Source: a virus (Duplodnaviria; Heunggongvirae; Uroviricota; Caudoviricetes). Taken from it: a stretch of DNA of 4,413 bases. Within the stretch, counting starts at the first letter, position 1. Each line of letters opens with the position of its first letter. A program made the position numbers and the translations under genes. The stretch lies in IMG/VR virus record IMGVR_UViG_3300000059_000084. The stretch is one strand, 5' to 3'. A model generated the notes under the pieces. It worked only from the letters and a program-made list of their open reading frames with translations. It made no database searches and had not been told where the DNA came from. This document shows positions 1-4,413 of this stretch, piece after piece.

Positions 1-15
1 TTCTCTGTATCCGGC

Positions 16-36
16 GTTAATTGTTAACTGGTTAAC
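16..36. repeat. Three direct copies of GTTAA at 16-20, 23-27 and 31-35 (the last two as GTTAAC), spaced 7-8 bp; possible protein-binding array or simply the end of an upstream gene
   Basis: Read directly: cgGTTAAttGTTAACtgGTTAACg. Frames 1 and 3 have TAA stops at 25-27 and 18-20, so an upstream + strand gene could terminate here. Confidence 0.3.
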
Positions 37-45
37 GTCACCTGG

Positions 46-59
46 AGGCACCAGGCACC
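46..59. repeat. Tandem heptamer AGGCACC x2 immediately upstream of the first ORF
   Basis: Read directly: AGGCACC (46-52) followed by AGGCACC (53-59). It overlaps a short CCTGG/CCAGG inverted repeat (42-46 / 51-55). Function unknown. Confidence 0.25.
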
Positions 60-91
60 GCATCACAAAATTCATTGTTGAGGACGCGATA

Positions 92-280
92 ATGGAAACC
101 TTATTACCAAACGTTAATACGTCTGAAGGTTGTTTTGAAATTGGTGTCAGTATCAGTAACCCTGCATTTACTGAAGATGCCATTAATAAGAGAAAACACG
201 AACGGGAGTTATTAAATAAAATATGCATTCTTTCAATGCTGGCCCGTTTACGTCCGACGCAAAAAGGATACTGGCAATGA
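92..280 (+). CDS. Small hypothetical protein (62 aa from ATG 92); the frame is open back to position 2, so it could instead be the 3' end of a longer gene starting upstream of the window
   Basis: ATG at 92 is preceded by GAGGA (80-84) with a 7-nt spacer. Its TGA stop (278-280) overlaps the next ATG (277-279) in an ATGA arrangement. No recognisable motif in the translation. Confidence 0.4.
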   Translation: METLLPNVNTSEGCFEIGVSISNPAFTEDAINKRKHERELLNKICILSMLARLRPTQKGYWQ

Positions 281-468
281 ATACCACATTTGCACTTGTT
301 CTGACGGTTTTTCTTGTTTCCGGTGAACCGGTTGACATGGTTACTGGCGTATACAGCTCAATGAAAGAATGCATGGCTGCCGCAGCCGAACAGAAAATTC
401 CTGGTAACTGTTATCCGGTCGATAAAGCTATTCGCATGGATAATAACGAAATCCCGGCAGGACTTTAA
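277..468 (+). CDS. Small hypothetical protein (63 aa) with a hydrophobic N-terminal segment (MNTTFALVLTVFLVSG), probably membrane-anchored or secreted
   Basis: ATG at 277 is preceded by AAGGA (264-268) with an 8-nt spacer. The track's alternative start at 223 has no Shine-Dalgarno and would overlap the previous ORF by 58 nt, so 277 is preferred. No lipobox Cys follows the hydrophobic stretch; two Cys lie in the C-terminal half. Confidence 0.5.
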   Translation: MNTTFALVLTVFLVSGEPVDMVTGVYSSMKECMAAAAEQKIPGNCYPVDKAIRMDNNEIPAGL

Positions 469-561
469 AACAGCACCGTAACAAATATCCGGTTTCATTT
501 TTATATGCCAGCAATGGCAGGGATTTGTTCACCCTTAAATCTGTAATGAGGTTAAAACAAA

Positions 562-3021
562 ATGAGTAAAGTCTTTATTTGCGCCGCCATTCCGGACGAA
601 CAGGCAATAAAGGAAGAAGGTGCAGTTGCTGTAGCCACTGCCATAGAAGCCGGTGATGAACGGCGCGCCCGCGCAAAATTTCACTGGCAATTCCTGGAGC
701 AATATCCGGCTGCTCAGGACTGCGCTTATAAATTTCTTGTCTGCGAGGATAAACCCGGCATGGCCCGCCCTGCCCTTGATTCCTGGGATACCGATTATAT
801 GCAGGAAAACCACTGGGATGAGGAATCTGCTTCCTTTGTCCCGGTCGAACCTGAATCCGATCCGTTGAGCGTGACTTTTGACAAGCTGGCCCCTGAAGTG
901 CAGAACGCTGTCATGGTTAAGTTCGACACATGTGAAAACATCACCGTTGATATGGTGATTAGCGCACAGGAATTGTTGCAGGAAGACATGGCGACATTCG
1001 ACGGACATATCGTTGAAGCGTTGATGAAAATGCCAGAAGTTAACGCCATGTATCCGGAGCTTAAGCTGCATGCCATCGGGTGGGTTAAGCATAAATGTAA
1101 TCCAGGTGCCAAATTGCCCGAAATTCAGGCGGAGATGCGCATCTGGAAAAAACGTCGCGAAGCCGAACGCAAAGAAACCGGAAAACATACTTCCGTTGTT
1201 GATCTCGCCCGCGCCAGAGTCAACCGGCAGAACACTGAAAACTCAACAGGAAAAATCCACCCTGTCACTACCGCCATTCGTCGCGAATACAAGCAGACAT
1301 GGAAAACACCGGATGAAGAACTGGCCTACGCTTTCTGGCCTGGTGATATTGATGCCGGAAACATTGACGGCAGCATCCATCGCTGGGCAAAAAATGAAGT
1401 TATCGACAAAGATCGCGAAGACTGGAAACGTATTTCCGCATCAATGCGCAAACAGCCTGATGCCATTCGCTACGACCGTCAGACTATTTTTGGCCTTGTT
1501 CGTGAGCGTCCACTCGACATTCACAAAGATCCCGTGGCACTGAACAAATACATCACTGAATACCTGACTACAAAGGGCGTGTTTGAAGATGAAGGAACAA
1601 ATCAGAGCACAACTGATACTCTCCCGTCGCCAGTACCAGAAACTGATGCAGTGGAAACGGCAATGCCGGACAACGAAAAAACCGAATGCGAAGTGGAAAC
1701 CGAACCATCTGTAGAGCGTGAGGGGCCGTTCTATTTCCTCTTCACCGATAAGGATGGCGAAAAATACGGTCGCGCAAACAAACTTTCTGGTCTGGATAAG
1801 GCGCTGGCCTCAGGCGCAACTGAAATCACGAAAGAAGAATATTTTGCCCGCAAAAACGGTACATACTCAGGTTCACAACAAAATACTGGTGCATCTGACA
1901 CGACCGCACAACCAGAGCCGGTAAAAGTTACCGCTGACGAAGTAAACAAAATTATGCAGGCAGCCAATATCAGCCAGCCTGACGCCGATAAGTTGCTTGC
2001 TGCCTCTCGCGGAGAATTTGTTGCAGGGATTAGCGACCCGAATGATCCGAAATGGGTGAAGGGGATTGAAACCCGCGATTCAGTGAACCAGAACCAGCAA
2101 AAAGCGGAACAAAACAGCCCAAATGCGTTACAAAACGAGCCAGAAACGAAACACCCTGAACCAGTAGCGCAACAGGAACCGGAAAAAGCCTGCACTGCCT
2201 GCGGCCAGACCGGCGGCGGCAACTGTCCTGACTGTGGCGCGGTGATGGGCGACGCAACATACCAGGAAACATTCGATGAAGAGAATCAGGTTGAAGTTCA
2301 GGAAAATGATCCGGAGGAAATGGAAGGCGCTGAACATCCACACAAGGAGAATGCTGGCAGCGCTCAGGACCACGCCAGCGATAGTGAAACTGGCGAGACG
2401 GCAGATCCCTTAATTACGGTGAACAGTCATCACATTATTACATCCACCAGCAGGGTGTGGCATCACCTGATGATCGACCTTGAAACGATGGGAACTAACA
2501 GCAATGCCCCCATCGTGGTTATTGGTGCTGTGTTCTTCGATCCGCAGACTGGGGAAATCGGACCAACTTTTTATATCGTTATCAGTCTGGCTGACGCAAT
2601 GGACACAGGCGCAACCCCTGACGGTGGAACCATCGAATGGTGGCTGAAGCAGTCCAGTGAAGCCAGAGCTGCCATTTTAACAGACCAGGTAAAACTGAAG
2701 GATGCCCTTTCGCAGTTTCGGGAGTTCATCAACGAATACTCAGATGAAAAATTCGTTCAGGTATGGGGTAATGGTGCGACTTTCGATAACGCAATTTTGC
2801 GCACCTCATACGAACGTCTGGACATCCCCTGCCCGTGGCGCTACCACAACGATCGCGATGTACGCACAATCGTTGAGCTGGGAAAAACAATCGATTTTGA
2901 TGCCAGAACCGTTATTCCATTCGAAGGCGTGCGCCACAATGCGCTGGATGACGCCCGTCACCAGGCAAAATACGTTACAGCTACGATACAAAAACTGATC
3001 CCGAGTCAGGCTGATTTTTAA
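562..3021 (+). CDS. Large prophage exonuclease (819 aa): N-terminal region of unknown function, acidic low-complexity linker with a zinc ribbon, and a C-terminal DnaQ-like DEDDh 3'-5' exonuclease domain (Rv2179c-like; proteins of this kind are often annotated exodeoxyribonuclease VIII-like in prophages)
   Basis: Single uninterrupted 2460-nt ORF. ATG at 562 has GAGG at 547-550. The C-terminus carries the three DEDDh motifs in canonical order and spacing: MIDLET (D at 2476-2478, E at 2482-2484), WGNGATFDNAIL (D at 2785-2787), and HNALDD (H at 2935-2937, D at 2950-2952). Position upstream of xis-int matches the exonuclease slot of lambdoid recombination modules. Confidence 0.85.
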   Translation: MSKVFICAAIPDEQAIKEEGAVAVATAIEAGDERRARAKFHWQFLEQYPAAQDCAYKFLVCEDKPGMARPALDSWDTDYMQENHWDEESASFVPVEPESDPLSVTFDKLAPEVQNAVMVKFDTCENITVDMVISAQELLQEDMATFDGHIVEALMKMPEVNAMYPELKLHAIGWVKHKCNPGAKLPEIQAEMRIWKKRREAERKETGKHTSVVDLARARVNRQNTENSTGKIHPVTTAIRREYKQTWKTPDEELAYAFWPGDIDAGNIDGSIHRWAKNEVIDKDREDWKRISASMRKQPDAIRYDRQTIFGLVRERPLDIHKDPVALNKYITEYLTTKGVFEDEGTNQSTTDTLPSPVPETDAVETAMPDNEKTECEVETEPSVEREGPFYFLFTDKDGEKYGRANKLSGLDKALASGATEITKEEYFARKNGTYSGSQQNTGASDTTAQPEPVKVTADEVNKIMQAANISQPDADKLLAASRGEFVAGISDPNDPKWVKGIETRDSVNQNQQKAEQNSPNALQNEPETKHPEPVAQQEPEKACTACGQTGGGNCPDCGAVMGDATYQETFDEENQVEVQENDPEEMEGAEHPHKENAGSAQDHASDSETGETADPLITVNSHHIITSTSRVWHHLMIDLETMGTNSNAPIVVIGAVFFDPQTGEIGPTFYIVISLADAMDTGATPDGGTIEWWLKQSSEARAAILTDQVKLKDALSQFREFINEYSDEKFVQVWGNGATFDNAILRTSYERLDIPCPWRYHNDRDVRTIVELGKTIDFDARTVIPFEGVRHNALDDARHQAKYVTATIQKLIPSQADF
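2191..2235 (+). other. Zinc-ribbon motif C-x2-C-x7-C-x2-C (CTACGQTGGGNCPDC) inside the exonuclease linker
   Basis: Read from translation: Cys codons at 2191-2193, 2200-2202, 2224-2226 and 2233-2235, flanked by acidic low-complexity sequence. Four-Cys spacing is typical of a zinc ribbon or knuckle. Confidence 0.5.
2470..3018 (+). other. DEDDh (DnaQ-like) 3'-5' exonuclease catalytic domain, sub-feature of the 562-3021 CDS
   Basis: Exo I (D-x-E), Exo II (F-D-N) and Exo III (H-x4-D) motifs in the right order and spacing across about 180 aa. This is not the PD-(D/E)xK fold of RecE or lambda Exo. Confidence 0.8.
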
Positions 3022-3032
3022 TGTTCAACCAT

Positions 3033-3064
3033 CGCCGGTTGTGACTGGTATTCTGCAACCGGCG
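3033..3064 (+). promoter_or_regulatory. Perfect 9-bp GC-rich inverted repeat (CGCCGGTTG ... CAACCGGCG) with a 14-nt loop, in the 69-bp gap between the exonuclease stop and the xis start
   Basis: Read directly: arms at 3033-3041 and 3056-3064 are exact reverse complements, with possible G-U wobble extension at 3042/3055 and 3043/3054. No U-tract follows, so it is not a canonical intrinsic terminator. Confidence 0.4.
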
Positions 3065-3090
3065 CTCATCTGAAGTAAGAGATAAAAGCG

Positions 3091-3342
3091 ATGAGCGAAG
3101 TAATCATGATTGTCTCTCCCGGTAAATGGGTATCCGAAGAACAGCTAATTGCGCTGAAAGGAATAAAAAAGGGAACGCTAAAAAAAGCCAGGGAAAAATC
3201 GTTTATGGAAGGAAGGGAATATAAGCATGTAGCCCATGACGGTATGCCATGGGATAACAGCCCATGCTTTTACAACCTAGAAGAAATTGATCGCTGGATT
3301 GAACGTCAGGCATCAGCAAGACCAAGACGTCATCTTACTTGA
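3091..3342 (+). CDS. xis: Excisionase-like small DNA-binding protein (83 aa; putative prophage excisionase, DUF1233-like)
   Basis: Small basic protein encoded immediately upstream of, and co-oriented with, the integrase. ATG at 3091 has AAGAG about 10 nt upstream; an alternative in-frame ATG lies at 3106. Family assignment is from memory of similar prophage excisionases, not a search. Confidence 0.65.
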   Translation: MSEVIMIVSPGKWVSEEQLIALKGIKKGTLKKAREKSFMEGREYKHVAHDGMPWDNSPCFYNLEEIDRWIERQASARPRRHLT

Positions 3343-3376: not shown

Positions 3377-4413
3377 ATGAAATATCCGACAGGCGTGGAA
3401 AACCATGGAGGGAAATTACGTATCTGGTTTGTTTATAAAGGTGTAAGAGTCAGGGAAAATCTGGGGGTTCCTGACACGACAAAAAACAGGCGCATTGCAG
3501 GTGAGCTGCGCGCCTCTGTTTGTTATGCAATAAAAACCGGCGTTTTCGACTATGCAAAACAGTTTCCCTCCTCACACAATCTGGAAAAATTTGGTGAGGC
3601 CCGACAAGATTTAACCATAAAGGAACTGGCTGAAAAATTTCTGGCACTGAAAGAAACGGAAGTCGCAAAAACGTCACTCAACACGTACCGTGCCGTCATC
3701 AAAAATATTCTGAGCATAATCGGTGAAAAAAATCTTGCCTCGTCGATTAATAAAGAAAAATTGCTGGCGGTACGTAAAGAGTTACTTACTGGATACCAGA
3801 TCCCCAAAAGTAATTATATTGTTACGCAACCGGGGAGATCGGCTGTCACCGTAAATAATTACATGACAAATCTTTACGCCGTGTTCCAGTTTGGTGTTGA
3901 TAACGGTTACCTGGCAGATAATCCGTTTAAGGGGATCTCGCCATTAAAGGAATCAAGAACCATTCCCGATCCTCTTTCACGGGAGGAATTTATCCGTCTT
4001 ATCGACGCCTGCAGAAATCAGCAGGCCAAAAATTTATGGTGTGTTTCTGTTTATACAGGCATTCGCCCTGGTGAACTGTGTGCGCTTGGGTGGGAGGACA
4101 TAGATCTGAAAAATGGAACAATGATGATCAGGAGAAATTTAGCAAAAGATCGTTTTACGGTACCGAAAACACAGGCTGGTACCAATCGGGTAATTCACCT
4201 TATCAAGCCTGCAATCGACGCTCTCAGGAGTCAGATGACACTAACGAGGCTGAGCAAAGAACATATTATTGACGTTCACCTCAGAGAGTTCGGCAGAACA
4301 GAAAAACAAAAATGCACCTTTGTTTTTCAACCTGAAGTGTCAGCGAGAGTAAAAAATTATGGTGACCATTTTACCGTTGACTCAATAAGGCAGATGTGGG
4401 ACGCAGCGATAAA
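3377..4413 (+). CDS. int: Phage tyrosine integrase, lambdoid IntR/IntS-like, 3'-truncated by the window edge (345 codons present, no stop)
   Basis: Hand translation of frame 2 from ATG 3377 (GAGAGAAG Shine-Dalgarno at 3364-3371) is open to the window end. N-terminus MKYPTGVENHGGKLRIWFVYKGVRVRE resembles the arm-binding domain of Rac-type integrases. VYTGIRPGELCALGWEDIDL carries the first conserved catalytic Arg of the tyrosine recombinase box. The HxxR and Tyr motifs would lie beyond 4413. Confidence 0.9.
   Translation, partial: MKYPTGVENHGGKLRIWFVYKGVRVRENLGVPDTTKNRRIAGELRASVCYAIKTGVFDYAKQFPSSHNLEKFGEARQDLTIKELAEKFLALKETEVAKTSLNTYRAVIKNILSIIGEKNLASSINKEKLLAVRKELLTGYQIPKSNYIVTQPGRSAVTVNNYMTNLYAVFQFGVDNGYLADNPFKGISPLKESRTIPDPLSREEFIRLIDACRNQQAKNLWCVSVYTGIRPGELCALGWEDIDLKNGTMMIRRNLAKDRFTVPKTQAGTNRVIHLIKPAIDALRSQMTLTRLSKEHIIDVHLREFGRTEKQKCTFVFQPEVSARVKNYGDHFTVDSIRQMWDAAI

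Follow-up and report, generated by a model that had tools for sequence, protein, structure and literature searches.

Two small overlapping genes upstream of a prophage exonuclease, identified as a probable dicB-ydfD pair of a Qin-like Escherichia coli prophage

What is encoded by two small overlapping open reading frames (ORFs) that lie just upstream of an exonuclease gene in a lambdoid prophage? We addressed this question for positions 92-468 of IMG/VR record IMGVR_UViG_3300000059_000084, a Caudoviricetes sequence whose complete analysed stretch of 4,413 nucleotides (nt) is referred to here as the window. With high confidence, ORF1 is dicB and ORF2 is ydfD; in a Qin-like lambdoid prophage of Escherichia coli these form the distal protein-coding part of the dicBF operon. 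Our analysis established family membership, orthology to b1575 and b1576 of E. coli K-12, synteny, a conserved Shine-Dalgarno (SD) sequence and ATGA junction, and purifying selection. An earlier reading made from the sequence alone (the sequence-only reading) had described two small overlapping ORFs with SD sequences and an ATGA at 277-280, all of which are present (GAGGA at 80-84, AAGGA at 264-268), and it was right to see, upstream of the exonuclease, a genuine and tightly coupled pair of small genes belonging to a lambdoid early-left operon. Overall its observation is confirmed and its interpretation partly supported. The pair itself is already known: both genes are well studied, the prophage is found in most E. 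coli genomes, and RefSeq annotation of the two genes is present in thousands of them. The useful outcome is a correction, in that division inhibition and phage exclusion belong to ORF1, whereas ORF2 encodes the lysis protein.

Identity and boundaries of the two genes

The reference for comparison is the cryptic prophage Qin in E. coli K-12 MG1655, which carries dicF, dicB (b1575, 62 amino acids), ydfD (b1576, 63 amino acids, annotated "lysis protein") and the pseudogenes ydfE and intQ. Conservation was assessed in 87 loci gathered through YdfD, namely six species-representative genomes, 80 IMG/VR records and K-12. The features of the pair, as read from the sequence and from the comparisons described below, are:

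80-84, plus strand: SD of dicB, GAGGA, 7 nt 5′ of the ATG, kept in nearly all of the 87 loci
92-280, plus strand: dicB, encoding the 62-residue cell-division inhibition protein DicB, stop included
264-268, plus strand: SD of ydfD, AAGGA, 8 nt 5′ of the ATG, inside the dicB codons for Q-K-G
277-280, plus strand: ATGA stop/start overlap of dicB and ydfD, equal to the 4-nt overlap in K-12 (locus L001, 2795-2798)
277-468, plus strand: ydfD, stop included, whose 63-residue DUF1482 product is orthologous to YdfD, the lysis protein of K-12 Qin

The sequence-only reading could not assign either translation to a nameable family; profile searches of both peptides matched named families with published functions over the full length. 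ORF1 (ATG at 92-94, TGA at 278-280) matched the Pfam family DicB, PF05358, over positions 1-62 of 62 (E=3.5e-36, 123.1 bits, threshold 27). It also scored 127 bits against NCBIfam NF049927 (CellDivInhibDicB, "cell division inhibition protein DicB"), which has a curated cutoff of 100, and matched PHROG 1251 over its full length. The protein has 84% amino acid identity to K-12 DicB and the same length. Its operon position agrees as well, since the K-12 spacer between dicF and dicB matches window positions 1-91 in its 3′ part at 99% identity. A common DicB allele of 60 amino acids, found in 29 of the 87 loci (L038-L064 and others), arises from a change of TGG to TGA at the equivalent of window 272-274.

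ORF2 (ATG at 277-279, TAA at 466-468) was assigned to Pfam DUF1482, PF07358, the YdfD/YebW family (E=2.8e-23, 82 bits, gathering score 25), and aligned with phrog_1092 over positions 1-63 of 63 (E=7e-37); NCBIfam holds no model for YdfD. It shares 73% amino acid identity with K-12 YdfD as well as its length, its hydrophobic N-terminus, its overlap with dicB and its position directly 3′ of that gene. The conserved core common to both comprises two cysteines, QKIPGNCYPVDK and a C-terminal IPAGL, and C32, C45, QKIP and PAG are invariant across 25 sequences. Two length forms occur: the 63-residue form of the window and K-12, which ends at TAA, and a commoner one of 67 residues (63 of 87 loci), in which AAA stands in place of this TAA and a terminal KTAP extension follows (window 466-480). 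Sequence searches of DicB and YdfD against the PDB gave nothing at E≤1.

The surroundings point in the same direction. The window is colinear with K-12 Qin at 93% column identity, leader and downstream spacer included, and of 5426 complete E. coli genomes 4560 have DNA like it, with the RefSeq labels dicB, DUF1482 family protein and exonuclease. In the closest genome (97% identity) the gene order is repressor, DUF1391 (ydfA-like), DicF-like element, spacer, dicB, DUF1482, exonuclease, xis and int.

Other gene boundaries could be drawn, with ORF1 as the 3′ end of a larger gene, which the sequence-only reading had named as a result that would speak against the pair, or with ORF2 starting at ATG 223 and overlapping dicB by 58 nt. 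The frame upstream of ATG 92 is indeed open to the window edge (from position 2, giving a 92-residue translation), the longer ORF of 81 amino acids from ATG 223 given by the ORF lister is present in both the window and K-12, and some automatic gene calls in public data have 81 or 85 amino acids. However, in relatives this open frame is between 3 and 54 codons long, 21 loci have no in-frame start there, and the K-12 frame closes immediately to the left of where the window would start; 2-280 is therefore not the remainder of a longer gene, in line with the title of Cam et al. (1988). The ATGs at 92 and 277 are where every profile starts, those of Pfam and PHROG for ORF2 at the very residue encoded at 277. 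Good SDs precede 92 and 277 and not 223, and the RefSeq products have 62 and 63 amino acids. We consider other boundaries extremely unlikely.

Conservation of the junction and possible translational coupling

The junction CAATGAAT is invariant in all 87 loci. The SD reads AAAGGA in 86 of them and ACAGGA in one, and it is retained even next to divergent DicB proteins that share just 56-65% identity with that of the window. A true ATGA overlap is found in 58 of the 87; in the other 29 the earlier TGA ends dicB and leaves a gap of 2 nt before the ydfD ATG, with SD and ATG unchanged. In each of the 87 loci dicB is the immediate upstream neighbour of ydfD, and both genes are intact in 86, so that the pair and its overlap are conserved across relatives, a point to which the sequence-only reading had looked as a check. 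The sole broken pair is that of Shigella flexneri SFBU0723 (locus L007, ~2785-3157), in which dicB is intact and ydfD has a frameshifted start region and a truncated ORF.

Both genes are under purifying selection. In the called frames the ratio of non-synonymous to synonymous substitution rates (dN/dS, pairwise Nei-Gojobori) was 0.38 (dicB) and 0.26 (ydfD), compared with 0.65-1.3 in the other two frames. Full-length family matches, selection and the kept pair, SD and junction place dicB and ydfD far beyond chance as real genes. The divergent DicB alleles (56-65% identity; loci L017, L029, L030, L036, L037 and L082-L084) are joined to YdfD proteins that are 83-95% identical. Such pairing indicates that recombination breakpoints lie in or close to the invariant junction. 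The constancy of SD and ATGA junction even across divergent dicB alleles is one of three modest comparative points of our analysis.

The geometry of the junction suggests translational coupling of dicB and ydfD. Under such coupling, ydfD would be translated by ribosomes that terminate at its ATG, or 2 nt before it, on the dicB message, the SD within the Q-K-G codons of dicB would aid its translation, and synthesis of YdfD would be tied to, and approximately proportional to, that of the division inhibitor by which its lytic effect is restrained. The junction RNA (235-320) showed no notable or coupling-enforcing structure (z=+1.76), so re-initiation and independent initiation are both possible.

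Functions of DicB and YdfD and the nature of their partnership

In K-12, a polycistronic RNA from dicBp spans ydfABC, dicF, dicB and ydfD, and a ydfABC-dicFB-ydfD species of 1,608 nt was detected, with none longer (PMC10448788). By analogy with the K-12 literature, the operon would be repressed by the CI-like DicA, with transcription starting at dicBp and running across ydfABC and dicF to dicB-ydfD. DicB binds MinC, and the complex is recruited by ZipA to the septal ring, where the Z ring is depolymerised; via MinC, DicB also inhibits ManYZ, which confers ~100-fold resistance to lambda and other phages that inject through ManYZ (PMC6832061). At 84% identity, the window DicB is predicted to share these activities, i.e. 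MinC binding, the ZipA-dependent division block and the ManYZ-dependent block of phage entry. MinC would then dismantle the FtsZ ring, leading to cell filamentation, and inhibition of the ManYZ inner-membrane channel would block DNA entry of lambda-like superinfecting phages. The suggestion of the sequence-only reading that a division-inhibiting or exclusion factor is encoded here is thus correct for the pair, in the form of DicB (ORF1), and incorrect for ORF2, which is reported to be a lysis protein that targets IspG.

Induction of YdfD lyses cells rapidly. YdfD was reported to bind IspG and to inhibit isoprenoid synthesis by the methylerythritol phosphate (MEP) pathway, and overexpression of ispG or supplementation with a metabolite relieved lysis (PMC8835842). 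Co-expression of DicB or SulA prevented lysis (PMC8835842; also PMC11430063), therefore YdfD lysis needs active division. From this report on the K-12 protein, division-dependent lysis and binding and inhibition of IspG may be expected of the window YdfD.

The sequence-only reading had ascribed a hydrophobic N-terminal helix to ORF2, and a small inner-membrane protein, holin-like or Kil-like, with an N-terminal transmembrane helix and toxicity through membrane damage instead of enzyme inhibition, is the corresponding alternative. The hydrophobic stretch is real: residues 4-14 have a mean Kyte-Doolittle value of 2.7, and the 19-residue window reaches 1.61, which we judge borderline for a membrane span. 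However, this 19-residue window takes in E17, P18 and D20, and the uninterrupted apolar run has only 14 residues in the window protein and 11 in the commonest alleles (LNTGEP) before an E-P-x-D follows. The ~18-20 apolar residues of a membrane helix are not reached, and by hydropathy the segment falls short of a canonical transmembrane helix. AlphaFold2 was run on a shallow alignment of 25 sequences; four of the five models had a predicted local distance difference test score (pLDDT) near 50, and this low confidence leaves some room for a membrane protein. The best model (pLDDT 76, predicted template modelling score 0.56) folds as beta-beta-alpha-beta, with residues 4-12 as a beta-strand. A Foldseek search of this model against the PDB and BFVD gave no match at E≤0.001, the sole resemblance being to small uncharacterised phage proteins. 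Experimental evidence on the K-12 protein also weighs against this alternative, as YdfD fused to glutathione S-transferase (GST) is soluble and binds the cytoplasmic IspG, ispG overexpression or metabolite rescues, and deletion of the N-terminal domain lessens but does not abolish killing, the latter as given in a passage of PMC8835842 that cites Masuda 2016 (all PMC8835842). A transmembrane helix in the YdfD N-terminus is unlikely, judging from the length of the apolar run and the predicted model, and we regard the membrane-protein explanation as quite improbable.

A further question is whether the two genes form a dedicated module. The sequence-only reading had considered a toxin-antitoxin-like or anti-defence function, and the pair might be seen as a toxin/antidote-like or "division-gated lysis" module in which YdfD is the toxin and DicB is co-translated to restrain it. 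Such a pair would act as a unit, e.g. as a lysis timer or an abortive-infection-like switch in functional phages. It would account for the abolition of YdfD lysis by co-expressed DicB, as stated in passages of PMC8835842 and PMC11430063 that both cite Masuda 2016, for the invariant junction and the adjacency in 87 of 87 loci, and for the co-occurrence in deposited phage genomes, where DicB was found in 20 records and YdfD in all 20 of them. However, the masking of YdfD toxicity by DicB does not make a classical toxin-antitoxin system. SulA rescues equally well (PMC8835842), therefore the DicB rescue is indirect, via the division block, and does not indicate a specific interaction. DicB moreover has functions of its own through MinC and ManYZ. 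PADLOC gave no match for DicB or YdfD to its defence and toxin-antitoxin models, and the Pfam hits of the two proteins were DicB and DUF1482 only. The 56-65% identical dicB alleles beside near-identical ydfD speak for free recombination rather than co-evolution.

The distribution of DUF1482 also argues against such a module. DUF1482 proteins with 43-45% identity were found in 8 further phage records (six Klebsiella, one Citrobacter and one Salmonella) without detectable DicB, and the chromosomal DUF1482 paralogue of K-12, yebW, has no adjoining DicB. The co-occurrence to be expected of an obligatory toxin-antitoxin pair is thus not seen. In Klebsiella phage ST16-OXA48phi5.1 (locus L092, 2391-2692) and Salmonella phage SW-37 (locus L093, 2301-2698), DUF1482 overlaps an upstream small ORF by 4 nt and 1 nt, respectively, and these upstream ORFs belong to families unrelated to DicB (phrog_22279 and phrog_3722). 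This overlap with unrelated small ORFs in other enterobacterial phages is the second comparative point; tight packing therefore looks general to the operon slot and not a mark of a partnership between DicB and YdfD. The upstream ORF of the Klebsiella phage also ends in Q-K-G and encodes the same AAAGG SD. Taken together, the non-obligatory pairing and the rescue by SulA argue against a toxin-antitoxin system, and we consider a dedicated toxin/antidote module unlikely.

Reading the two genes as dicB and ydfD with the functions reported from K-12 has points against it as well. The window DicB differs from that of K-12 at 10 of 62 residues, mostly clustered in the C-terminal tail (RPTQKGYWQ in the window, RLMPKGCAQ in K-12), and YdfD differs at 17 of 63 residues, concentrated in residues 21-37. 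The IspG mechanism of YdfD comes from the study of one laboratory (PMC8835842). DUF1482 genes without DicB exist, so that the partnership is not obligatory for the family, and translation of ydfD might also start on its own at the ydfD SD. The first description of dicB dates from 1988, that of ydfD as a lysis gene from 2016 and that of IspG as its reported target from 2022; the 2016 study is reported to have proposed a membrane association of YdfD.

A speculative extension of the dicB-ydfD assignment concerns functional Qin-like phages, where dicB-ydfD could work as one co-translated unit, while the leader consisting of DicF and its spacer could separately gate the translation of the division inhibitor behind it. 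In such a unit, YdfD would act early in lytic growth to stop the host from making isoprenoids and envelope, and stoichiometric DicB would block septation, so that no premature lysis occurs. We give these two proposals jointly a small chance.

Among known systems, K-12 dicB and ydfD are nearest, and they agree with the window in position after the dicF spacer, leader and overlap. YebW (b1837) and the DUF1482 proteins of the Klebsiella, Salmonella and Citrobacter phages share the Pfam family of YdfD, and the copies of the two phages examined above (one Klebsiella, one Salmonella) also occupy an early-left position near exonuclease or recombination genes, with an overlap of 1-4 nt with the upstream ORF. 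They differ in having no DicB partner, and yebW follows yebV after a gap of 104 nt. KilR of Rac and Kil of lambda resemble DicB in their role as small inhibitors of FtsZ-ring assembly encoded by prophages and in their operon slot, and kil of Rac-SA53, 75/02 and Evi also has the leader of DicF plus spacer, but their sequences are unrelated to those of DicB and YdfD. The mechanism differs as well: the targets of Kil proteins are FtsZ and its membrane tethers. DicB acts through MinC (PMC6832061).

The dicB leader and the remainder of the window

Upstream of dicB, the window begins within the spacer that separates dicF from dicB, with the following features:

1-91, plus strand: 3′ part of the dicF-to-dicB spacer (dicB leader), 99% identical to K-12 Qin (L001, 2519-2609; one base differs)
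13-39 and 41-55, plus strand: leader hairpins, from RNA folding
~56-84, plus strand: 3′ arm of a long-range leader stem, from RNA folding

The window does not reach DicF, which in K-12 is situated ~84 nt upstream of position 1. Upstream of dicB it scored 76.7 bits in K-12, and a DicF-like element scored 38.7 bits, below the gathering score, in the closest genome. The complete K-12 spacer (L001, 2436-2609) folds at -66.1 kcal/mol (z=-5.16), and none of 200 shuffled sequences was as stable. Its closing stem of ~28 bp pairs the U-tract and the first nt after DicF with the region that ends at the dicB SD; only the 3′ arm and the two inner hairpins of this fold are inside the window. In a consensus fold of 33 unique leaders the long stem was kept, and the changes were one-sided and mostly wobble-compatible, with 0 compensatory ones. 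The spacer between DicF and dicB is better conserved than the genes downstream of it.

Similar leaders are found where dicB is absent. Window positions 8-76 have matches of 94-98% identity in phages without dicB, and in Rac-SA53, Stx phage 75/02 and phage Evi (loci L088-L090, ~1400-1600) a DicF or DicF-like element and a spacer of ~170 nt precede kil or kilR; the leader likeness in the kil/kilR phages ends ~15-20 nt before the start codon. The spacer may be a control element, acting on translation or through RNase III, that is common to interchangeable division inhibitors. With the Rfam family STnc100 (RF02076, gathering score 47 bits), the truncated window copy scored 19.8 bits and the full spacers of K-12, NS-NP030 and Rac-SA53 scored 34.4, 37.0 and 43.8 bits; all scores are below gathering, and the leader is related to this family at best. 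PasD (bioRxiv 10.64898/2026.05.13.724894) was also considered as a relative, but its context, in the late region, is different and membership is not claimed.

Downstream of ydfD, the window continues as follows:

506-529, plus strand: weak terminator-like hairpin TGCCAGCAATGGCA followed by the T-rich tail GGGATTTGTT, in the spacer between ydfD and the exonuclease gene, from a consensus scan
562-3021, plus strand: exonuclease, 819 amino acids, intact counterpart of the K-12 pseudogene ydfE (PF16473; phrog_2082 over the full length)
3091-3342, plus strand: excisionase of the DUF1233 type (PF06806, E=1.6e-31; phrog_539 excisionase)
3377-4413, plus strand: tyrosine integrase with PF12167 Arm DNA-binding domain and PF00589, continuing past the right window edge

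The window thus holds the undegraded form of the Qin left arm, with dicF spacer, dicB, ydfD, full-length ydfE exonuclease, xis and int, whereas in K-12 this arm is disrupted by IS2 and the ydfE pseudogene is split by IS2E. As the third comparative point, the intact arm reveals the original form of the K-12 pseudogenes ydfE and intQ. The C-terminal domain of the exonuclease is an Rv2179c-like DEDDh 3′-5′ exonuclease (PF16473, E=2.1e-69, residues 634-807). Its N-terminal region (residues 1-257) corresponds to phrog_5943, to which no function is assigned, and its middle part is like the central region of RecE/ExoVIII, with a score far under the NCBIfam cutoff. The hairpin at 506-529 is identical in K-12 and may mark the 3′ end of the 1,608-nt ydfABC-dicFB-ydfD transcript (PMC10448788); the number of hits of the terminator scan in the window was not above that in shuffled sequence.

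Near-identical copies of the E. coli-type dicB-ydfD or leader were also observed in records of unrelated hosts, namely a metagenome-assembled genome labelled Veillonella parvula (locus L006), Aeromonas phage AP1 and Actinobacillus phage vB_Apl-pPE4. Contamination during binning or assembly, rather than a real host range, is the likeliest explanation for these records.

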